Shown here piece by piece: positions 4,300-64,000 of a stretch of 64,000 nt of DNA. The notes under the pieces were generated by a model, which ran no database searches, was not told the origin of the DNA, and saw only the letters and a list, made by a program, of their open reading frames with translations. The stretch comes from Eledone cirrhosa (taxonomy: Eukaryota): NCBI GenBank assembly GCA_964016885.1, contig OZ024744.1, positions 74,958,001 through 75,022,000 on the forward strand, in the 5' to 3' direction. The position numbers and the translations under genes were made by a program. Within the stretch, counting starts at the first letter, position 1. Each line of letters begins with the position of its first letter.

Positions 4300-4689
4300 T
4301 ACTGGATCTGTGATATCTTAATTCGGAGAAGTAGCAGTTCTGCCTTGAATCATTCTCTGATCTCCGAGCTACGCACTCTCTCTAGTAACGTTACCCCGAA
4401 GACCCTTCGGAGGAAACCCTTTTCGGCTGCTTGTATTCGCGATCGTATTCTATCTGTCGTTCATATTTAGATTTTTTACTTAGTCACTGAAGAATAATTT
4501 CGATGAAAATACAAATATGCACGTTATCTATATCAGTCTCTTTACCGTTGACCGTTTGTTGTTCATACACATTTGATTCAGCATCACAAATTATCCCATT
4601 CACATGAATATTGAAATTTTCTACGCGTCTTATACAATTGTTTTTTGAAAACATCCTTCTATATATGTATATATATATATGTATGTATG

Positions 4690-4771
<82 letters not shown>

Positions 4772-4804
4772 TATGTATACGTACATATATATATATATAT
4801 ATGT

Positions 4805-5890
4805 ATACAGCCGTACAGTAGTATGTATATACATACATACAGGCACACATATATATATGTGCGTATGGATTTACCGAACATTTATTATAATGTTCGGTTT
4901 GTTTGTAAACAAACAGCCCGAATTAAGCCGTACAGTGTTCGGCAACCATCGTTGCCCTTTTGTTCAACACTGACAAAGGAACGATGAGCTAGTTTCTAGC
5001 TTATTAGCTGTCATCAGCCCCGTATACCTTCCTGTCAGTCGATTGAACGTTTGAAAGTATATACTTTCCTTATGCATATTAACGGCTGAGCAGCCTAATG
5101 TGCATATCGACTGAGTTAGTCGGCCGGCCGTACCGAGAACTATAAATGGAAAAAAATGAAATTTCATTTCTCACTCTTAGTACGGCTGATACTTAAATAT
5201 AAGTGTGTATACGTACATACATATGTGTATACAGACGTACAGTAGTGTGTATATACATACATACGTGCACACATATATATATACGTATGGGTTTACCGAA
5301 CATTTATTATAATGTTCGGTTTGTTTGTAAACAAACAGCCCGAATTAAGCCGTACAGTGTTCGGCAAACCATCGTTGCCCTTTTGTTCAACACTGACTAA
5401 GGAGCGATGAACTAGTTTCTAGCTTATTAGCTGTCATCAGGACCTTTGTTAGTGTTGAACAAAAGGTCAACGATGGTTGCCGAACACTGTACGGCTAATA
5501 ATTCGGGCTGTTTGTTTACAAACAAACCGAACATTATAATAAATTTTCGGTAAACCATTACGTACATATATATATATATGTGTGTGCATGTGTGTATATA
5601 TATACATACTCCTGTACGTCTGTATACACATATGTATGTACGTATATATACTTATATTTAAGTATCAGCCATACTAAAAGTGAGAAATGGAATTTCATTT
5701 TTTTCATTTATCGTTTTCGGTACGCCCGGCCGACTAACTCACTCGATATGCAAATTAGGCTGCTCAGGCGTTAATATGCGTAAGGAAAGTATATACTTTC
5801 AAACGTTCAATCGACTGACAGGAAGGTATACGTTGCTGATGACAGCTAACAAGCTAGAAAGTAGTTCATCGTTCCTTTGTCAGTGTTGAA
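4805..5890. mobile_element. Non-coding 423-bp HHR repeat unit (family C, retrozyme-like): about 1.5 tandem units followed by an inverted unit
   Basis: Direct repeat 4805-5017 / 5228-5440 with period 423; inverted copy 5445-5890. HHR motifs at 4982-5022(-), 5405-5440(-) and 5831-5871(+). Confidence 0.8.
5831..5871 (+). ncRNA. Type I hammerhead ribozyme (family C)
   Basis: CGTTG-CTGATGA-C-AGCT-AACA-AGCT-A-GAAAG-TA-GTT-CATCG; stems I and III each carry one mismatch. Confidence 0.7.
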
Positions 5891-5917
5891 GAAAATAATT
5901 TCATTTTTTCCATTTAA

Positions 5918-5959
<42 letters not shown>

Positions 5960-5963
<4 letters not shown>

Positions 5964-6327
5964 AGAGTTAGGACCCCGACAGCTGAGCTCCAGCCGTTTC
6001 GACAGCTAGATCCGAATTGAGTTCGGATCTAGCTGTCGAAACGGCCGGAGCTCAGCTGTCGGGGCCCTGGCTCTCTTCCTATTACCCACTCTACTACCCT
6101 AAGTATCGTGTTCTCTGGTGCGTTGTGGCCCACATGGCTCCTTACCACACTTTCTTTCTTATATATGTATATATGTATATATATATATATAGTCCAGAAT
6201 TAGCCGTCGAAACGGCTTGAGCTCAGCCGTCGGGGTCCTACTCGTTCCTATTACCCACTCTACTACCCTAAGTATTGAGTACTTTGGTGCCTTATGGTCC
6301 ACCTGGTTCCTTACCACAATTCCTTCG

Positions 6328-6330
<3 letters not shown>
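5960..6330. mobile_element. PLE pLTR tail pieces (family G): palindrome 5960-6080 plus tandem copy 6190-6330
   Basis: GAAACGGCTTGAGCTCAGCCGTCGGGG...ATTACCCACTCTACTACCCTAAGTATTGAG is homologous to the 3' end of the PLE at 15940-19060; flanked by (TA)n. Confidence 0.75.
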
Positions 6331-6359
<29 letters not shown>

Positions 6360-11900: not shown

Positions 11901-11961
11901 TTTTATCTGATGAAAGCGCACCAAGAATGCCTTAGTGGTCCTTGAAATATATATAATAAAA
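11901..11961 (+). ncRNA. Type I hammerhead ribozyme (family A)
   Basis: TTTTAT-CTGATGA-AAG...CTT-GAAAT-ATAT-ATA-ATAAAA, within pLTR fragment 11860-12090. Confidence 0.8.
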
Positions 11962-13039: not shown

Positions 13040-13152
<113 letters not shown>

Positions 13153-13357
13153 ATATTTGGGGAGGGTCATATTTGCGTAATATTGCCAGAATTAATAACA
13201 GAACACACTCACTGTTTGGTTGGTTTTCGCTTCTCGCTGTCTTTTATATCTGCGGTCTAACTTACTCGGTCCTCAACGTTGCCATTGACTGACCGACGGT
13301 CAAAAATAATACAGATACAATATAGACACAAACACATATATATAGTTTACATAATTT

Positions 13358-13397
13358 ACATAAATCTTTCGTTGCACATCTGCAACATCGTCAGTGG
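13358..13397 (-). ncRNA. Type I hammerhead in the PLE 3' UTR
   Basis: CCA-CTGACGA-T-GTTGCA-GATG-TGCAAC-GAAAG-AT-TTA-TGT; sense to the PLE ORF. Confidence 0.75.
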
Positions 13398-13679
13398 TGT
13401 TATATTCATTGTTCCTCCTGTTGTGTTGTATGTCTACGCCATTTTTTATTCAGTCTGTCTATATATTTATTTATTTATTTATTTGCTTGTTTGTTTATCT
13501 TATTTTATTTTGTCTTCTTTGCGCATGCGTTTGCGTGTGTGTATAGTGCTATGTGTGATGTGTGACTAGTGTGTATAGTGTTGTGTCTGCTGGGTGACTA
13601 GTGTGTGTTTATGTGCTTGTTGTTATTGTGCTTGTGTATGTATTTATTTATCTTATTTTATTTAATTTTATTTACTTAT

Positions 13680-14420
13680 TTATACTTCTCTTAGGTCAGT
13701 GTTGTTTGTTTGGGTGTTGTTGTTGTTCCACTCATTCTTTCTGTTTAGCTTTGGCCTTCTAATTTCTATTTCACTGGCCTCTCTGATTTGCCTATCTGCT
13801 GGGTCATTCCTATGTTTAGATATTATTCTAATTTCTATGTTGTCTATGTTACCGTCATGTTGTTGTTTAGCATGTTCGTATAGTACTGACCCGTTTTTTC
13901 GTCCTTTTAGTTCCCCCCAGTGTTGGTCTATCCTTTCACCTATGCTACGAGCTGTCTCACCTATGTATGTTGTTGTCATGTTTCTGCAAGTACCCTCTGT
14001 ACATCTTATGCTATAGACTACGTTTCTAGTTTTACAGTTTATCCGGGGGTTCACCTTACATATGATACACTTCCTATTGGTACAGTGGGTTTTCTTAAAA
14101 GGGTAGGTTTTGCTGATCAGGGATTTTATGGTGGTTTCTGGCTTTTCTACCACCTTTATTTTTAAGTGGGTCTTTCTCAGGGCCTTTCTACACTGGTTAG
14201 CTAATTTCCCTCCAGGGGTGGCGTCCACAAACATGACACTCTGATATCTCTGGTTGTCGTACCATGATGTGGCCTTCCCTATCTTATGTCTAGCCCTATC
14301 TAAGCTATTCCATGATTTGCTCCTGTATAGTGGGCAAATTCCTTTCATGTCCAGTTCTATGAGGGTCTTATACTTTTCCATGGCTCCTTTGTATACTCTG
14401 ACTCTGTCTCTCAGAGAACT
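13680..14420 (-). CDS. PLE thumb/linker, Cys-rich segment and GIY-YIG endonuclease (frameshifted from the RT ORF)
   Basis: HCTNRKCIIC..NCKTRNVVYSIRC...YIGETARSIGERIDQH...RQIREASEI...PKLNRKNEW. Confidence 0.9.
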   Translation of the reverse strand, partial: SSLRDRVRVYKGAMEKYKTLIELDMKGICPLYRSKSWNSLDRARHKIGKATSWYDNQRYQSVMFVDATPGGKLANQCRKALRKTHLKIKVVEKPETTIKSLISKTYPFKKTHCTNRKCIICKVNPRINCKTRNVVYSIRCTEGTCRNMTTTYIGETARSIGERIDQHWGELKGRKNGSVLYEHAKQQHDGNIDNIEIRIISKHRNDPADRQIREASEIEIRRPKLNRKNEWNNNNTQTNNTDLREV

Positions 14421-15897
14421 GTATGCGGTTGATGAAGTGTTGGATGTGTCCTTCCATTTCTGTTGGGTCGCACATGCTGGACACATTCTTCATCACTCGT
14501 ACCAAATCTGCGATCAGAATATTAAACTTAGCACTACTGGACATTGCTGAGTTTTTGAGTATCAGGTATTTGGAGGCCATGGGTTTAGCATAGTGTGAGT
14601 GGAGAATTTGGGCTCTCTCGTCTATAGTGTTAATCCAGAGTTCTGTGTCTAATACAGGTAGTCTATTGTTAGGGTGTTTGGAAGGGAAGTCTATAGTTAC
14701 AGTTATACTCTGGTGTATGGAATTAGCTAGCTGCTGGATGCTTTCCATCGTGCTACGTTCTAAATCAAACTTGTTAGTGCTCTCTAGTGGGGGTGTTCTT
14801 ATAACTATATTGATATCGTCTACATAACGAGAGTACATGATGAGGTCTATGGAGCTTTCATTAAGGAGATCTTTAAGTCTCCTTTCCCACCATACCATGA
14901 AAAGGTTGGCAACATCACCAGCTATGCTGACGCCGATGGCTGCTCCCTCATTTTGGGTGTAGATTTTCTCATTGAACTTAAATATGTGGCCCTTTAGGGT
15001 AGTTTTGATACTAGCCCCTATTGCATGTGCGACCATTTTTCTTACCTGATCAGTGTTTTGGGGGGTCCGTATGGCTTTGGTCCACCCAATCCACCTTCCT
15101 ATGGGAGTCTTTTTAGCCATTGAGGTTATGGTGGGGGGTCTACCTCTTATAGGTCTACTAGGGCAGAAACATCTAAGGTCATGGCTGTCTAGGTAGTCAG
15201 TGTCGTAGGTAAGTCTAAGTAGGAGGCCCAGTTCGTCTGTGTCGACGTCGCAGAACTCCACCTCACTCTCAATGATCATCTCCACACATCTTTTCACAGC
15301 AAAATCAATGTTAATGGATGGGTACAGTGACACCACATCCATGCTGCCTATTATGCAGTTGGATAGGCTCCTGTTTTTGTTGCACTCACTGATTCTGCTG
15401 AGGAGGTCCTCTGTACTTTCACATACATCTGGGGACATCTTGATTATGGGGCGTATAACCATTGAGAGGAAGTAGGAGATCCTGTAGTTGCTAGCTATAT
15501 TAGCTCCGCATACGGGTCTTGTTGGTGGTCCTGTTGTCGGGTCGTCGACTGTCTTGTGGTCTTTGCGGAGCCCATACAAGGGTGGTATGCCATTGTTAGA
15601 CGCCTGGAAGTTGTTGGCAGTGCGTCTGCTTGGCTTTAGGATGTCAGTCCACATCATCATGTGAGCGTTGAGGATTTTTTCTCTCCCATCGTGTGTTAGT
15701 TGTGCAACTTCGCTCGTGTTGGTGATGTGGGGTTGCATTGCCTCGATGTAGTTCGGCATGCTATCTATTGACATCCTACCAGACTTATCTGTGGGTAGAC
15801 ACACTACCTCACCATCCCTTGTGCGCTGCTTGAGGCTAACCAAGCCTTCTACAGGTTTTCTCCTAAGTTGTTGGGCCTCTGGTCTGCTCTGTCTCAT
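14368..15897 (-). CDS. PLE reverse transcriptase
   Basis: PTDKSG, RPVCG, SMDVVSLYPSI, EGAAIG..AGDVANLFM, YSRYVDD and LPVLD motifs; frameshift near 14420. Confidence 0.93.
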   Translation of the reverse strand: MRQSRPEAQQLRRKPVEGLVSLKQRTRDGEVVCLPTDKSGRMSIDSMPNYIEAMQPHITNTSEVAQLTHDGREKILNAHMMMWTDILKPSRRTANNFQASNNGIPPLYGLRKDHKTVDDPTTGPPTRPVCGANIASNYRISYFLSMVIRPIIKMSPDVCESTEDLLSRISECNKNRSLSNCIIGSMDVVSLYPSINIDFAVKRCVEMIIESEVEFCDVDTDELGLLLRLTYDTDYLDSHDLRCFCPSRPIRGRPPTITSMAKKTPIGRWIGWTKAIRTPQNTDQVRKMVAHAIGASIKTTLKGHIFKFNEKIYTQNEGAAIGVSIAGDVANLFMVWWERRLKDLLNESSIDLIMYSRYVDDINIVIRTPPLESTNKFDLERSTMESIQQLANSIHQSITVTIDFPSKHPNNRLPVLDTELWINTIDERAQILHSHYAKPMASKYLILKNSAMSSSAKFNILIADLVRVMKNVSSMCDPTEMEGHIQHFINRIQFSERQSQSIQRSHGKV

Positions 15898-16722
15898 AGT
15901 GTACCTGTCTACTACCTGTCTAATCTTATTTCTAGCTATGGTGGATCATAACGCACCAGAGTGCTCAATACTTAGGGTAGTAGTGTGGGTAATAGGAAAA
16001 TGTTTAACCTCGACGGCAGAGCTCAAGCCGTTTCGATGGCTATTTCTGGACTAAATTAGAATTTTTAGCGAGGTAATAAATAGCCGAAATTTTGAAGGGG
16101 TAATTCCTTATATGAGAAGATTGTAGTTGTCAAAAGGATTGGTCAGAATTTCTTGTAAACACAATTAAGTCTCTCTTGGTGGTAGGTGGGAGGTCGGGGT
16201 GGCTGAATTTACCTGTAGAACAATGAGGGAGTCGGTGGAGCGGGTCAGCGTTGAAAGTGAATTCTATACAGCAAATTCTAAGGAGTGTATATGAAATTAG
16301 GCTTGGTAGAAAACAGGTGAAAAATAATGAATTCTGGGGGAATTTGATAGTAGGACGTTATAAAATTAAAAGGTAAATAAATTGAGATTAAAAGATAATA
16401 AATAAAAAAAAATAATAAAAAAATTAAATAGTAGCAGATAACAAAAATCTCTAGAGTCTAAAGCAGCTGTTATATTTTTAGCTGGTTTTGCGTTTTCGGC
16501 CAATGCTATATAGAATTTACTGGGATGGGGTTACTGAGTCTACAATGGGCTGCCTCAGGATGGGCGAAAGAGGAAAAAGGAAAAGAAAGGGGAGAGGGAG
16601 TGGAAGGAAGTGAAAGGAAGAGATAAAGGGAAAAAGAAAAGAAGTACATCTACCTATATATGCTTGGAGTTTCCCCAATCTTGTTCGGCAAGTGTGGAAA
16701 AGAAGGATGTTGCTGTCATTTT

Positions 16723-18630
16723 CTACCTACCCGGGTCATGAGGGGGTTTGAGGCCGAGGTAAGTCCTATGCAATCGGTGTTTACATGCAGTTACAAGTTC
16801 GTCTTTTTTGTTTAGGAGTTGGTCCTTCGTAAACAACATTTGTATTGTTTCCTCCGAGCATAAGTTACACGGACGGCGTCCTCCCTTGTAGGAGTTAGCC
16901 CTGGACAGTAAGCTCAAAGTAAGATTGTGTGTTATGTTGTTATTTTAGTGGTCCCATATGTGGCCCGAAAGTGTAGTGGCATGTCGCCAGGCCGGGTTTC
17001 GGAACGTATGTCGGTGTTGGTAGAGCCGGGTCTTAAAGTCACAAGCGATTAATCCTATATAGACTTTGATGGAGTTTTCTGTCCTCGCGTTGCATTGGAA
17101 GATCACGTTATGTTATCGGCATCTGTTATTGAGGGGGCACGTAGAAATATCAGGGTAGTTTCACCTTCTGGTCGGCTCTCCACTGATGTCTAGGTTGTTT
17201 CTTCCATAGGAGTTGAGTTTCTTGTTGTTTGATGAGGCGTTGGTTTGTGCGAAGTTGGGTGTCGTGCTGTAAAAGATATTGACAGTATTTTTGTTGATTA
17301 TGTTTTGGTAGCGGTGTTGTGGTGGGAAGTGTTTTTCGAGGAGCCTAAAGAAGATTTTCCTGATTGGTTTGGCCACCTCGGCATTGTGGGGCGGGTTAAA
17401 CCACGTTACGTGGCGTGAGCGGCGGCGTCGCCTGCTGGTTCCGCTAAGGAAAGCTGGATAAAAGGAGTATTCCTCTCGAAAGCCGCTTCGACTGAGGGCT
17501 TGATTGTAATAAGGCGCATATTCATCGAATATTTGCTCATTAGCGGACAAAGGAGATATGCGGAGGGAGATGTTTTTAACCAGGTTATTGGTTATGTTTC
17601 CAGGATCGTTAGAGCGACGGTGGATGTAGGGAAGGTTGCCGTTTTGTTTCCTGTATGGGTAGTACAGATCATTTTCGAGTTTGAGGGTAACGTCCAGGAA
17701 ATTGACTCGGGTTAGGGACGTTTGTAGGGTGATTTTAAATCCTCAGTCCCGTAAGAAGTTGATTAGTTGTTTACGGACCCGGTCTGTACTACTACACTTT
17801 GAGGATAAATATCCACCGCCGAATGCTGGCAACATTTCGGTGAGTTTATGTAGTAGGAATAATCCTATAAGATTGGTCACCTCGGCCGAGTCGGGAGTTC
17901 TCTTTATCCACTTGGAGTTGTCGAAAAGGAGGACTGTCTTCCTGGCGTGGAGAATGATGTTTCTTTCCTGGTCGGTGATGCGTGTGGTTGTTTTGGCAAA
18001 GTCTAAAGCGGCTGTAAGGAGCGGTAAGGTAATAGAGGTGTAATAGCTCTCTATGTCGAACTGGAAGAATTTGGTGTCCCGTTTGTCCTCAATATTCCTG
18101 AACCATGAGATGTCTTCCTGGGTGCTGACCCAAGAGCTATGTCTCGCGTTTTGCTTAACTTTTGGTATAACGTGATCTAGGATCTTTTTACAGATTCTCC
18201 CTATGTCCGACTTCGTCGGGTTTATAAGCCTGTTGGATGGTTTGCGGTCGAAATCGGATTTATGGTCCTTCAGGTTGAAATAGGGAGTCCGTGGGTCGAG
18301 AGGTTCAGTGCGGTCGGCAACTCCGAGGTTGGGAGTAATTTGTTGTCCCATCTAGATTTAAGTCATTTAATTTTTGAAAGGTTAGCCTTTTTGTAGGTGG
18401 AATTCAGGCTGCTCCTGATAATTGTGTGGTATCTGTCAGGGTTGACGAAATAGAGGTTTCCAGTTTTGTCCGAATGCACCAGGATGTCGTTGGTGCATTC
18501 ATACACCGTTATTTTGCTACGCAGTTGTTGTAGGAATCGCTTTTATCTGGGTTTAAATTTTATACCCTTGATCAGGTGGAAGAGGTCGTTCTCGAGGGTG
18601 AGAGCATAGGGTTCGGTGGGGGAGATTTTA
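16723..18630 (-). pseudogene. Disrupted PLE RT + GIY-YIG ORF
   Basis: RLINPTKSDIGRICK, FDIESYYTSI, NFLDVTLKL, WFNPP, VYIGL, CNLCSEE..LLNKKDELVTACKHR; several frameshifts; the YRDD region is deleted. Confidence 0.88.
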
Positions 18631-25580: not shown

Positions 25581-27426
<1,846 letters not shown>

Positions 27427-29681: not shown

Positions 29682-29719
<38 letters not shown>

Positions 29720-29726
<7 letters not shown>

Positions 29727-30385
29727 GGAAAAGAATGAAACGAAATTTCATTTCTCATTCTTAGTACGGCTGATACCTAAATATAAGTATGTATACGTAC
29801 ATACATATATGTGTACAGACCCACAGTAGTATGTATATATATACATACATGCACACATATATATATGTACGCATGGGTTTACCGAACATTTATTATAATG
29901 TTCGGTTTGTTTGTAAACAAACAGCCCGAATTACACCGTACAGTGCTCGGCAACCATCGTCGCCCTTTTGTTCAACAACAGATGATGGAACGTCTGAAAG
30001 TATATACTTTTTTTTCCATTTATCGTTTTCGGTATGCCCGGCCGACTAACTCACTCAATATGCAAATTAGGCTGCTCAGCCGTTAATATGCATAAGGAAA
30101 GTATATACTTTCAAACGTTCAATCATCTGACAGAAAGGTATACGATGCTGACGATAGCTATTAAGCTTTAAACTAGTACATCGTTCCTTTGTCAGTGTTG
30201 AACAAAAGAGCAACGATGGTTGCCGAGCACTGTATGGCGTAATTCGGGCTGTTTGTTTACAAACAAACCGAACATTACCATAAATGTTCGGTAAACCCAT
30301 ACGTACATATATATATGAGTGCATGTATGTATATACTACTGTACGTCTGTACACATATATGTATGTACGTTTACATACTTATATA
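29720..30385. mobile_element. Family C HHR unit, forward piece plus inverted piece (HHR 30143-30183 +, GAAA mutated to TAAA)
   Basis: Homologous to 4805-5890; stem I CGATG/CATCG is perfect. Confidence 0.8.
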
Positions 30386-30521
30386 TAAATAGGAGAGAGA
30401 GTGGTGGGGAGGCAGACTGACAAACAAAGAGGGGACAATTGGTGAGAGAGGGAAGGAGAGAAAGAGATAGGTCACTTGCTGAGGAGTGAGAGGAGATGGA
30501 TACAATTTAAGAATGGGGTGG

Positions 30522-38926: not shown

Positions 38927-38983
38927 TTTTATCTGATGAAAGCGTACCAAAGTTTTGGTACCCTTGAAATATATATAATAGAA
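38927..38983 (+). ncRNA. Type I hammerhead (family A)
   Basis: TTTTAT-CTGATGA-AAG-CGTACCAA-AGTT-TTGGTACC-CTT-GAAAT-ATAT-ATA-ATAGAA. Confidence 0.8.
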
Positions 38984-41958: not shown

Positions 41959-42301
41959 ATATTAATAAATGGAAACTATATTTATAAAACCATATTTATT
42001 TTATTATACATATTTCAAGGGCCACCAAGGCAGATTATGGTGCGCTTTCATCAGATAAAATACAGATTGGTTTTATAAATAATATTTATAAAACAAATCT
42101 GTATTTTATCTGAAGAAAGCGCACCATAATTTGCCTTGGTGGCCCTTGAAATGTGTATAATAAAACAAATATGGTTTTATAAATATACTTTCCATTTATT
42201 AATATATTGTGTATTTACTCCACTAATCTGACGAGTGCTTTATATCAGTTATAACATTGTTTTTTAAGCCTGTTGAATCCCAACAAATTAAATATAACCT
42301 C

Positions 42302-42708: not shown

Positions 42709-42770
42709 TTTTGTCTGAAGAAGGCATAACATATTGTTAATATGATATCCCTGAAATATATATAACGAAA
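42709..42770 (+). ncRNA. Type I hammerhead (diverged family A)
   Basis: TTTTGT-CTGAAGA-AGG...CCT-GAAAT-ATAT-ATA-ACGAAA; compensatory changes relative to other family A copies. Confidence 0.85.
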
Positions 42771-43039: not shown

Positions 43040-45095
43040 TATATTTATTAAAATAACAGATTAAAGTTTAAGCAAAGAATCGCTGCTTTCACCCTTAACG
43101 GGATCTCCTGAAACTAACAAAAGTCAATATGTGAAGGCAGAAGTGAATATTTCAAAAAACGTTGCAACCGGAGGAAGACAGGAAGACGATACTTTGGTTC
43201 GTGGAAACGTTCCCTGGCAAAGAACGGGAAAAAACGCATATAATACGTCATTCATTGGAGCGGTGAAAAACAATTACACGCAAAGACAGAACCACGTTTA
43301 TGGTATAAAAGAAGTCGTAGACTAATATTCTCTTAGGTGGTTCATAGAGACGTTCACTGGAAATGAACGGAAAAAACGAAGATAATACGTCATATGTGAA
43401 GCGTATAGAACAATTGTACGCAAAGACAAAAAACCATGTAAATGGTATAACTGAAGTCGTAGACTAAAATTCTAGCTAGGAAACCGAATGATTCTCCGCA
43501 CAGAGTTAAGAATAAAGTAAATAAAATACAGAGGTAATTGAAATTAAATAAATACACACACGCATCCAAATACGTACATACACAAGCATACGCGAAAACA
43601 CCCGCCATAGGTATACAAATACACGCACATATAAATATGTCTGTGTGTGCGTGTATACAAATAATTAAATAAACGTATATAAATAAATAAATACGTATAT
43701 AATAAGCGCACACGCATACCTACATGTAAATACACAAATGTTCGGAGACCACGTCAACCAAAACACGAAGTACGCATATACACACACCCTACATACGTAC
43801 GAACCCGCATACTCACACAGACGCAAAACTCACGTATACCCATAACCAAAAGCATATGTCCCAGAATATATAAAATATACGCCATAACATATACAATCAA
43901 ATATACGTACGAGAAAGAATACATACATTCACAAAACATACAGGTAATATATACTTACCTGTGTGAATAAGTAATGGTATAAACATAACATATACTTAGC
44001 TACCACATCAAGACGTAAAATATCCGCGTATAGATCGTACTATCCGTTTGGGTATAATGTGGGGCTGTAATACAGGAAAGTTTTGTGCAATTTATGTTTA
44101 CAAGCCGAAATTGCCTCAGATTTTTTGTTTAAGATGTGGTCTGTGGCGTAGAGTATTTCCAGGGCATCAGCGGCGCAGAGGTCACATGGTCTTTTATTTC
44201 CGTTATACGATCTAGCCCTAGCTAGGATCTCCCAGTGTAACTTTTATTGGGTGTGGTTGCCTTTTAGAGTCCAGATATGAGCTGAAAGTGACGTCATATT
44301 CCTTCTTAGAGGCTAACGAAAAGAATGGGTATGCATGTAAAGACGCTACTTGAATCTATTGGCGGTTAACCCTATGTAGGCCCTACGGAGGTGGGTGTTT
44401 CAACCTTACATTTGTAGACAATGTTACTAAAGAGGCATTTCCCGGATAGGGGGCAATCAAACCAATTCCTACAATTACAGTTAGTACTAAATACAGGGTT
44501 GCACGTATTCCTACGCCTAGGGAGTTTAGCTAAATTTGAAGCTGTGATGTTATGTGCAAGGTTAGGAGTCGTAGAGTAAGACATTTTAATAGTATTTCTA
44601 TTAAAAATTTTACTATATTTATATGTAGGGAAAAATGCTTCGTAATAAGGGAGAGAAAGATCTTAGCTAATGGTGTGGCTACCTCCATATTATATGGTGG
44701 GTTGTACCATATAATGCGTCGGGATCTATTTCTTCTAGGTCTATTTTCGTACTCTGTATATGCTACCTTATCGATAAATCCCCACCGAGCAAGAGCTTCA
44801 TTGTAATATGTGGAATGGTCGTTGAAAATATGCTCGTTAGTAGATAGACGGGAAAGCCTCAAAGAAACGTTTCTTACCAGGTTGTTGGTTATGCTGGCAG
44901 GATGGTTGGAATGCTTACTTATGTAATTAAGCCTATCATTCGGCTTTCTATACGGGTAATACAAGCCATTCGATAAATTGAGGGTAACGTCGAGATAATT
45001 GGCGACAATATGTATAGAGAGGTTGAAGCCTTTAAAGAAGGCTGTGAGTTCTTTTCTGAACCTGGCGCAAGCAGAAGGGCCGCACTTAGTCATGG
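43040..45095 (-). mobile_element. 5'-truncated PLE (second lineage): RT thumb and GIY-YIG remnants (44036-45095) plus 3' UTR
   Basis: [61 protein letters not shown]. Confidence 0.88.
43065..43115 (-). ncRNA. Hammerhead-like fold with variant core (family M; second copy 40700-40750)
   Basis: AGTTT-CAGGAGA-T-CCC-GTTAA-GGG-T-GAAAGCA-GCGATTCTT-TGCT-T-AAACT; the other copy has CAGAAGA. Confidence 0.65.
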
Positions 45096-45111
45096 TCATA
45101 TATTTTATATA

Positions 45112-45275
<164 letters not shown>

Positions 45276-45370
45276 TATATATATGGTGGCTGCCAACTCG
45301 TTTTCGAGTACGACCACTACTTTATATCCATGTAGGAGAACGCCTACCGATGCGCCGAACGAGTGATTTA

Positions 45371-46409: not shown

Positions 46410-46863
46410 GAAGTGGTATTAATTTGTTGGAAGTCCGACAAACATAAATATTTATAACTGATTTAGAGCACTCAACAGTTTACTGGAGTAAATATTCAAT
46501 GATATTAAATAAACGGAAACTATATTTATAAAACCATATTTATTTTATTATTTATATTTCAAGGGTAACCGAGACAATATTGGTACGCTTTCATCAGATA
46601 AAATACAAAGTTTGTTTTATAAATAGAGACATATCCATGAAAATCATACCTTATCGGTTGGAAATTCACAGGATAGTCTCTCTAGTGATTTTCCAACCGA
46701 TAAGGTATGATTTTCATGGGTATGTCTCTATTTATAAAACAAACTTTGTATTTTATCTGATGAAAGCGTACCTTTGTTATCTTGGTTACCCTTGAAATAT
46801 ATATAATAAAATAAATATGTTTTTATAAATATAGTTTCCATTTATTTAATATAATTGAATATT

Positions 46864-56127: not shown

Positions 56128-56208
56128 GCTCTGTATAGTCTTAAAAGACTATTTCATGAAAACTTTCAGTGGAGATGGTCACGGTTGGATTTCATTCATC
56201 AGCAGAGC
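56128..56208 (-). ncRNA. Type I hammerhead with full stem III and 40-nt domain II (family K)
   Basis: GCTCTG-CTGATGA-ATGAAA-[28 nt]-TTTCAT-GAA-ATAGTCTT-TT-AAGACTAT-A-CAGAGC; all three stems are perfect. Confidence 0.9.
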
Positions 56209-57000: not shown

Positions 57001-58048
<1,048 letters not shown>

Positions 58049-58177
58049 TATATATATATATACATATACATATATATATACGTATGTAAAAGGTAAACAG
58101 AAATAACAACACAATCGGTACAGTATACGGAAGGGATATATTAGGGATATATATATATTATTTATATATATATATAT

Positions 58178-58812
58178 ATTGTTATGCTTTGGGAGGGTCA
58201 TGTTGCCAATAAGAAACACACGCACCAGTTCCTTTCACTCCAATTTATTAGATGTCAAATTTATAAATTTAAGAATTTATAAATTTCCGGTTGGCTGGTT
58301 CCACAACCGGACGGTTATACATATATTGTCAAAGTTCACACATTCTCTGACCTCTTCAGTGACTGAGGATTCTTTTCTTTGTTTTTGTGCCTCTCCTTTG
58401 TTCTGTCGTACACCATCTCGTTTTTGTGTGTGTTGTGTGCTTAGTTTGCGCATGTGTTACATCCGGATGTCTGTGTGTGTTTATATTTGTTTATTTATTT
58501 GTTTATTTACATGTTACTGGTTGGTTGTTTGTTCTATGTGTGTGTGTGTTTTCATTTTGTCCTTAATTGTAAGTTGTGATGTTGTTATTCCATTCATATT
58601 TTCTATTTAATTTTGGTTGGAGTTCATTTATGTTTATTGCCTCTGTGATTTGTCTAAACATTGCGTCTTTTCTGTGTGTAGATGCTATTTTTATTTCTAT
58701 GTTCTCTAATTTACGCTTATGTTCTATTTTAGCATGGTGGCAGAGTACAGATGATTCTTTTCTATCTTGAAAATCTCGCCAGTGTTCATTTATCCGTTCT
58801 CCTATACTACTT
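58178..58812 (-). mobile_element. Family B PLE 3' fragment (GIY-YIG C-terminus plus UTR; HHR partly deleted)
   Basis: SIGERINEH..MFRQITEAINI..PKLNRKYEW. Confidence 0.88.
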
Positions 58813-59118: not shown

Positions 59119-59532
59119 CGAAATATAAGTCAATTGCATGAACTCATAATCCTTTATTTACTGCTATATATATTTCGATGATAGCCATTGAATGGCTATG
59201 ACCTCATCAGACAGTTAGTCAGTTCTTAGATATGCCAGCTCTGTGTTTATAGTGTCGATGGTATCAGAGCCTTGGGACATATCTCGCAAGGCTCTGATAC
59301 CATCGACACTATAAACACAGAGCTGGCATATCTAAGAACTGACTAACTGTCTGATGAGGTCATAGCCATTCAATGGCTATCATCGAAATATATATAGCAG
59401 TAAATAAAGGATTATGAGTTCATGCAATTGCCTTATGTTTTGTCACTATTATAACTCCGGAACCTATATCTTGGTTGAGTGCTCCCTATCTGCATACTGA
59501 AGTACTGGATTTTACCAACACTTACTTTCTTG

Positions 59533-61867: not shown

Positions 61868-61932
61868 TTTATCTGATGAAAACAAAAATGTTATTGCATG
61901 ATGATATTTGTTTTTGAAATGCGCATAATAAA
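61868..61932 (+). ncRNA. Type I hammerhead (family L)
   Basis: TTTAT-CTGATGA-AAACAAA...TTTGTTT-TT-GAAAT-GCGC-ATA-ATAAA. Confidence 0.75.
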
Positions 61933-61963: not shown

Positions 61964-63472
<1,509 letters not shown>

Positions 63473-63475
63473 TGT

Positions 63476-63561
<86 letters not shown>

Positions 63562-64000
63562 CGCGTGTGTGTGTATGTAGTGAATATATGTATGTACATA
63601 TACCCGGTTGTGTGTGTGCGTGCCTGCCTTACCATATTATGAATAGGTGTGCTCCTTTATGTTTACATGTGTTGAATTTAATACTATCTTATACGTTAAT
63701 GTCTGTATCTTTTTTGACTATAAGTATACACAAAAATACAAAATTACGTGTACATGCACATACGCACACAAATACTTATCAACGTGAATGAGTAATCACC
63801 CATAAATTACGTTTAAAAAGAATGCAAGAATTATGGTGTTTCTCTTATTTCAATGAGCAAAACATTTCCGTTTACAGAGGCATAATCGTTTCACAGTTAA
63901 AATTAAATGAATGTTCAATAAAATTGCAGTTATTTTCCCTTTTACCACTTTCTGTCTTATTTTTCAAATAAATAGTTAATACATATTGCCAACACTAGCG

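Follow-up and report, generated by a model that had tools for sequence, protein, structure and literature searches.

Metazoan non-LTR retrozymes have been described in Acropora and Mytilus (350-390 nt), in the axolotl as Rtz331 and Rtz353, and in newts as satellite 2 (PMC7229834, Cervera & de la Pena 2020). As reported there, circles are the dominant form of retrozyme RNA in mussel and are common in coral and axolotl. A dependence of retrozymes on PLEs has already been proposed (PMC7229834; 10.64898/2026.07.22.740005), and circle-templated copying of more than one unit has been proposed for PLEs themselves (PMC4209133). Insertions of PLEs are described with 5' truncation, partial tandem copies, an inverted 5' copy and a tail on one end (PMC8557442). 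In vitro, the tail corresponds to the interval between two internal initiation sites, and both strands of AT-rich DNA are cut and extended by the PLE (PMC11167929).

The repeat described here, family C, was analysed in the 3.0-Gb genome of Eledone cirrhosa and in a 64,000-nt stretch of it (the window), which is DNA rich in TA microsatellites. By its sequence features family C is a non-LTR retrozyme, and it represents a new family of a known class, for which an earlier description is possible. It shares with the retrozymes characterised in PMC7229834 a low-GC, non-coding unit of a few hundred nucleotides, a single type I hammerhead, tandem copies, thousands of copies and the presence of PLEs in the genome. 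It differs from them in that its unit is slightly longer, at 423 nt (466-500 nt in sister families), in that most of its copies are dispersed insertions of 0.3-1.6 units, which stop at two fixed internal 3' sites, form head-to-head inversions and have (TA)n as their target, and in that it is known from DNA alone. The available text of PMC7229834 has no description of such ends for its retrozymes, and no account of family C or of a PLE-type two-end signature in retrozymes was found in a literature search that stopped short of that paper's supplement and of repeat libraries. Family C is very probably a new non-LTR retrozyme family that is mobilised by PLE machinery.

One family-C copy in the window is made up as follows, where u1 is the first base after the predicted hammerhead cut:

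4660 to 4767: (TA)n microsatellite, adjoining the short 3' end of arm A
4762 to 5440, minus strand: arm A, 1.58 units from u393 to u216, 92.5% identical to the family consensus
4986 to 5409, minus strand: cut-to-cut span of about 423 nt, the predicted monomer or circle, with a branched hairpin fold
4987 to 5017, minus strand: second hammerhead, triplet decayed to GCU with U16.1 lost, predicted inactive
5410 to 5440, minus strand: first hammerhead, comprising the core and helices II and III, with triplet GUU and a cut predicted after 5410
5443 to 5895, plus strand: arm B, inverted and head-to-head to arm A, 1.05 units from u8 through to u29, 90.5% identical
5836 to 5866, plus strand: hammerhead of arm B, triplet GUU, with one change that breaks the helix III palindrome
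5896 to 5917, plus strand: tail remnant, about u247-268 (long 3' end), joined after an internal deletion, as read from the sequence
5918 to 5959: (TA)n microsatellite, adjoining the long 3' end of arm B

The initial annotation had set the limits of this copy at 4805-5890, which missed both ends; the locus extends from 4762 to about 5917 and includes an inverted second arm that had been overlooked. The two hammerhead cuts placed at 4986 and 5409, 423 nt apart, were recovered from minus-strand motifs at 5440-5410 and 5017-4987, and the first bases after the predicted cuts match. The cut triplet had been given as GUA but is GUU at 5410 and GCU at 4987, and the triplets along the locus are, in order, GUU, GCU and GUU. 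The four hairpins that had been quoted are present (4874/4889, 4897/4907, 5053 and 5156). Arm A, with its short 3' end at about 4768, is 5'-truncated at the core of the first ribozyme, and the hammerhead at 5410-5440 therefore lacks the 5' strand of helix I. The second ribozyme has lost U16.1, a position at which T is kept in 245 of 251 family-C passes. Given these two losses, the copy at 4762-5917 is predicted to be dead; it has decayed, and nothing points to a host function. Directly beside it, at 5956-6358, lies a different repeat, which has a period of 169 nt, contains a near-perfect inverted repeat of 61 nt and recurs 3' of several family-C copies.

The unit had been reported to recur at two other loci of the window, and both were found:

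29721 to 30391: second family-C insertion, with a minus-strand arm (u4-268), a short inverted piece and a plus-strand arm (u254-220)
57010 to 58053: third family-C insertion, with a minus-strand arm whose hammerhead has an intact core (57207-57177) and a rearranged plus-strand arm

In the second insertion the long end of the minus arm lies at a (TA)n tract (29685-29723), and the plus arm carries a decayed hammerhead (30148-30178). The plus-arm hammerhead of the third insertion is also decayed (57663-57693), and its long end is likewise at (TA)n.

The family-C ribozyme consists of a helix I of 6 bp with an internal loop, a helix II of 4 bp with a base mismatch that is replaced by a G-C pair in sister family D, and a helix III of 1 bp with a palindromic CUAG loop. 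The one-pair helix III with its palindromic tetraloop is as in HHR_Amex1, and the helix II base mismatch is as in HHR_Amex2, as these are presented in PMC7229834. Such canonical metazoan type I hammerheads are described as working in dimers (PMC4209133). Of 219 ribozyme copies, 168 retain an intact core (CUGANGA...GAAA...UH, with three helices), a proportion that is biased upward because the sample was partly chosen by the ribozyme motif; the family triplets are GUA (144) and GUU (107). Searches of Rfam gave no family at gathering score in the window and no match between the hammerhead families and the 121-nt ribozyme region at E<=10, and for three loci no hammerhead was among the 150 of 256 matches listed, which were only TA-driven and miRNA-like. 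The ribozyme call therefore rests on motif, geometry and covariation. A motif scan also picked up other hammerhead families in the window (11907-11955, 38933-38977, 42715-42764 and 61873-61927, plus strand; 56134-56202, minus strand; 42005-42159, 46549-46805 and 59165-59396), with a long helix II and a TA-rich helix III, and some of them are paired head-to-head.

In keeping with the structured RNA that was first suggested, the circular 423-nt consensus folds at -128.2 kcal/mol, with a z of -6.8 against 40 shuffles and of -4.9 for the antisense strand; the unit in the window folds equally well in antisense (z -8.7 versus -10.9). Both sides change in 20 of 81 consensus pairs, including pairs of helices I and II, across 11 units from three families with identities down to 60%, a set with a small number of independent lineages, in which two references were shifted, by 1 and 5 nt. 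The helices of the monomer are common to family C and its sister families. On the ribozyme strand, five polymorphic pairs switch between Watson-Crick and G-U, and four other paired polymorphisms break the predicted pair. Covariation, core retention and G-U tolerance are together read, at the level of sequence, as RNA-level selection. The unit is non-coding, as annotated: the longest ATG frame of the circularised consensus is 67 aa, the unit has no ORF with RT and GIY-YIG endonuclease, and no frame is endlessly open on the circularised unit. The motif ATGCAAAT at u303-310 (5748-5755 in the window) is kept in families C, E and D. It is octamer-like and was considered as a promoter; as it also makes up one strand of a conserved helix, that role is no more than a lead.

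At least 5,815 exact matches to a 28-nt ribozyme motif of family C are found genome-wide (0 for the reversed control), and a 32-nt motif at u63 has 1,969 matches. A looser ribozyme pattern, which also picks up sister families E and D, has 39,533 matches (control 1). Family E is 85% identical to family C, with units of 466-500 nt, and family D is 60% identical, with a unit of 466 nt. Young family-E insertions (L226, L227, L236 and L237) each have their own version of a hairpin at u75-112, common to all units and both arms, which implies many distinct source RNAs. The repeat is also abundant and variable in three sequence runs (contigs of one sample, kind unrecorded). Three samples of loci were drawn from the genome: the 30 best BLAST loci, 90 loci out of the first 100 listed ribozyme-motif places, and 90 loci out of the first 100 listed u63-motif places, the latter two all from the start of contig C1. 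Overlapping loci were removed before counting (7 from the end survey, 6 from a set of 91 arms, and 15 or 16 from larger arm sets).

The 423-nt consensus was used to plot the ends of family-C copies at 113 loci. The 3' ends are fixed, with 159 of 184 segments of at least 100 nt ending at u200-229 or u250-279, so that two end sites are defined, roughly 213 and 268 nt beyond the cut. The 5' ends are scattered over the whole unit. The start points thus do vary, as the initial annotation had it, but its circular permutation with free ends is wrong, since the 3' ends are fixed at two sites. Among segments of at least 150 nt, a TA-rich flank adjoins 68 of the 80 that end short and 46 of the 64 that end long, and 23 end elsewhere. 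Head-to-head pairs number 59; both ends could be classed in 38, of which 35 combine a short with a long end. The ends abut (TA)n, with no LTR-type ends; target-site duplication is masked by (TA)n, and one apparent 9-nt duplication is seen, at L041. Family C therefore has the features of PLE-type integration (two 3' ends, 5' truncation, partial tandems, an inverted 5' partner and an AT-rich target), and its ends match the PLE tail and inversion signature as published in PMC8557442 and PMC11167929.

Autonomous PLEs show exactly the same fixed 3' ends, tail and inversions, and vertebrate retrozymes are reported as derivatives of PLE terminal repeats, or pLTRs (10.64898/2026.07.22.740005). The copies could accordingly be 5'-truncated pLTRs of an autonomous PLE, an explanation that is improbable on several counts. 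Units are preceded upstream by further units, up to 5.7 units at L063 and 7.5 units at L225. Among 271 arms, the 5' end is joined to another family-C piece in 169 and free in 102, and none of the 102 free ends runs in sense into a PLE ORF in 300-nt flanks searched by tblastn with seven PLE pieces of the window as queries. Three tblastn matches were obtained in the free flanks; two are inverted and belong to a single insertion inside a PLE ORF, and one is about 200 nt off, behind an inverted piece. The 6-bp/4-bp canonical geometry of the ribozyme is also not that of the local PLE motifs with their long helix II. The claim that no PLE ORF is attached at the three window loci holds for the sense orientation. 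Consistent colinearity with an autonomous PLE with fixed termini had been named as evidence against a separate retrozyme; the termini are indeed fixed on the 3' side, but colinearity with an ORF was not found.

The template of the insertions was approached through the course of the arms across the cut site. In the set of 91 arms, which was chosen by a motif downstream of the ribozyme and not by the ribozyme itself, the cut site is crossed by all 77 arms that reach u10, and none stops within 8 nt of it. A set of 241 arms includes three long arrays that were added by hand, and its counts are corrected for how each arm was chosen; here 7 ends, against 9.9 expected, come within 10 nt of the cut site. 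Given the lack of a stop at this site, the cut linear monomer is not the template. Only an internal TA tract at u121-140 shows a clear excess of 5' ends (27 against 10 expected, 241 arms). Truncation of the 241 arms runs at 4.0 per kb during the first lap and at 4.7 per kb in later ones (about 4.3 overall). A rise in truncation after exactly one lap, as from strand displacement on a circle, is thus weak at most; the smaller 91-arm sample had hinted at a larger one. Ends do not pile up at whole laps in the 241 arms, and the arrays show no period-2 pattern, as for a dimer circle, the lag-2 distance being not below that at lag 1.

Passes within one insertion resemble each other. Discordance at 26 subfamily sites is 11.5% (96/836) between passes within an arm, 13.3% between inverted arms and 46.4% between loci, and at invariant sites every comparison gives a difference of about 6%. 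The within-arm value there, 6.3%, lies below the 11.5% at subfamily sites, a point against a circular template. The sharing of subfamily alleles within and between arms fits one template type per insertion, with about 3% later decay. No rank-specific alleles were found (49 versus 40, p=0.40), and the units within a young insertion are 0-3 changes apart and 8-25 changes away from other insertions of that family. As for the original proposal of a structured repeat retroposed from a circular or concatemeric template, the crossing of the cut site without a pile-up and the absence of a PLE ORF at the 102 free ends speak for it; the fixed 3' termini do not.

Judged from sequence, circular monomer RNA has about an even chance of being the actual template of the insertions. 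The same PLE-mobilised element could instead be copied from an uncut linear tandem transcript, derived from arrays or extended by template jumps, with the hammerhead trimming precursors or making by-product circles; this reading is plausible, if clearly short of an even chance. In its favor, the Anolis Poseidon protein is reported to initiate internally on unprocessed RNA, and ribozyme mutants to insert normally (PMC11167929). Nearly homogeneous arrays exist, of 3-7 units in family C and of 31 ribozymes in family D, and passes copied from a homogeneous linear array would match as well; in addition, an autonomous PLE of this genome, family N, reads through its own ribozyme motif. An uncut transcript would, however, be expected to leave a fixed 5' boundary at the transcription start, and none is seen except at the internal TA tract. 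Arms longer than one unit of 423 nt are frequent (101 of 241), but only 11 of 241 exceed 2.0 units, which makes long linear sources few, and the covariation of the ribozyme helices across families implies selection for cutting. Circle and uncut tandem are inseparable from DNA; the circle is favored given the missing 5' boundary, the few long linear sources, the structural selection on the ribozyme and the circles known in other animals.

Some tandem copies contain at least two complete ribozymes in succession, and the long arrays include L063 with 5.7 units, L225 with 7 ribozymes on one arm and L228 with 3. Variants are mosaic or repeated in blocks in L063, L225, L226 and the 31-ribozyme array of family D. 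These patterns leave rolling-circle copying unproven, and such arrays could supply linear multimer templates. In the long arrays, the mosaic and block-repeated variants point to DNA-level duplication. In the family-D array (L223-L224, G000:C1:5738327-5752443), the 31 ribozymes follow one another every 466 nt and an inverted arm is also present; the array's short and long ends lie at (TA)n, and its variants recur in a higher-order pattern of roughly 7 units. Higher-order variant blocks of this kind, together with the TA tract inside the unit, would also suit a dispersed satellite that spread at the DNA level, by TA-tract recombination or extrachromosomal circles, with a vestigial ribozyme. As an account of the family this is highly unlikely, even more so than an origin as pLTRs, given that fixed 3' and random 5' polarity, inverted pairs of a short and a long end, and strand-specific G-U tolerance are unexpected from DNA recombination. 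Spread at the DNA level is largely refuted for dispersal and likely for the growth of the long arrays.

Family N is a candidate source of the mobilising protein and is physically separate from the family-C locus. Its copy in the window is:

13121 to 15945, minus strand: 5'-truncated copy of family N, with RT, Cys linker, GIY-YIG-like end, 3' repeat with a hammerhead-like motif, and (TA)n end

Open frames of 1,217-1,218 aa in family N contain RT motifs, a Cys-rich linker and a GIY-YIG-like end, and each flanking repeat has a hammerhead-like motif. The family is young, with 150 best copies that are 99-100% identical in the endonuclease end and with several open frames (L231-L234). Its copies have two 3' ends at (TA)n, 45 nt apart and about 224 and 269 nt after the hammerhead-like motif, as compared to 213 and 268 nt in family C; the outer ends in 16 loci are 13 short and 3 long, with one locus without a match. 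Pfam gave only a sub-threshold RVT_1, on one window piece, and nothing on the full N protein. N is therefore called a PLE from motifs read in translation, of the Neptune or Nematis clade. Homologues of its endonuclease end are 11 unnamed proteins with 33-43% identity. The family-C unit has no homology to the 45 PLE 3' regions of the fetched loci beyond neighbouring insertions, and N therefore remains a candidate helper only.

In a single case (L103, 1352-1358; G000:C1:52963951-52963957), a family-C arm lies head-to-head with a 5'-truncated N copy, a junction that is possibly a template switch. This chimera was rejected as proof of the helper because the outer end of N is broken there, and a second one, at L041, turned out to be an insertion within a PLE ORF. 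A second PLE family, related to N, whose 3' repeat carries a clear minimal hammerhead, is found in the window at 58085-58608 and 62270-63628; the third family-C locus sits tail-to-tail with one of its copies. Three further minus-strand stretches (17161-18351, 26664-27161 and 44530-45321) are decayed PLE-like RT and GIY-YIG fragments that lack N's Cys linker context, and none of them has a Pfam match.

Family C can also be set beside mobile elements that use or resemble PLE machinery. With canonical EN+ PLEs (Neptune/Nematis type, Anolis Poseidon PAc), as portrayed in PMC11167929 and PMC8557442, it shares truncation, partial tandems, an inverted partner, an optional tail, an AT-rich target and a hammerhead upstream of the initiation sites. 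Unlike them it has no ORF, its tail is about 52-55 nt and not 30-40 nt, its hammerhead is canonical and not minimal, and no homology to local pLTRs was detected. A dependence on PLEs is likewise proposed for vertebrate retrozymes as pLTR derivatives (Li, Clavereau & Pollet 2026, 10.64898/2026.07.22.740005) and is supported here by the ends. The link drawn there is one of co-occurrence and pLTR homology, whereas here it is one of integration ends, with no pLTR homology found. The Chlamys PLE MRC1 (PMC8557442) is similarly non-autonomous, forms pLTRs and has multicopy head-to-tail insertions, but the MRC1 type resembles its autonomous partner at the 3' end, and the account given there describes its clade as being without canonical hammerheads.

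These observations suggest a route by which family C may spread. A copy with two intact ribozymes would be transcribed on the ribozyme strand, and paired hammerheads, acting as dimers, are predicted to cut out a 423-nt monomer that a host ligase would close into a circle. The RT/GIY-YIG protein of a PLE would nick both strands of a (TA)n tract, and reverse transcription would start inside the RNA at two points, some 213 and 268 nt past the cut. The DNA evidence is of copies that extend variably, cross the cut site, often exceed one unit and often lie head-to-head as a short and a long end. The long arrays, from their variant patterns, would then grow by DNA-level unequal exchange. In short, the insertions may be a genome-wide record of a Penelope protein that primes at two fixed sites on a ribozyme-made circle and runs round it, a combined reading that is held tentatively, at somewhat less than an even chance.

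The link between retrozymes and PLEs has so far come from co-occurrence and repeat homology. In family C, the insertion ends themselves carry the signature of two-site initiation, mapped to the base. A protein-free structured RNA of 423 nt offers a minimal substrate for what a PLE protein recognises in trans, and whether a circle or an uncut tandem is copied is a question for PLEs in general that family C allows to be asked. If the reading of priming on a circle is true, it would directly link the circular RNAs of animal retrozymes to their mobilisation, a connection that has so far only been proposed. With a superfamily of about 40,000 ribozyme copies and an intact candidate helper in the same genome, this should be testable in vitro.
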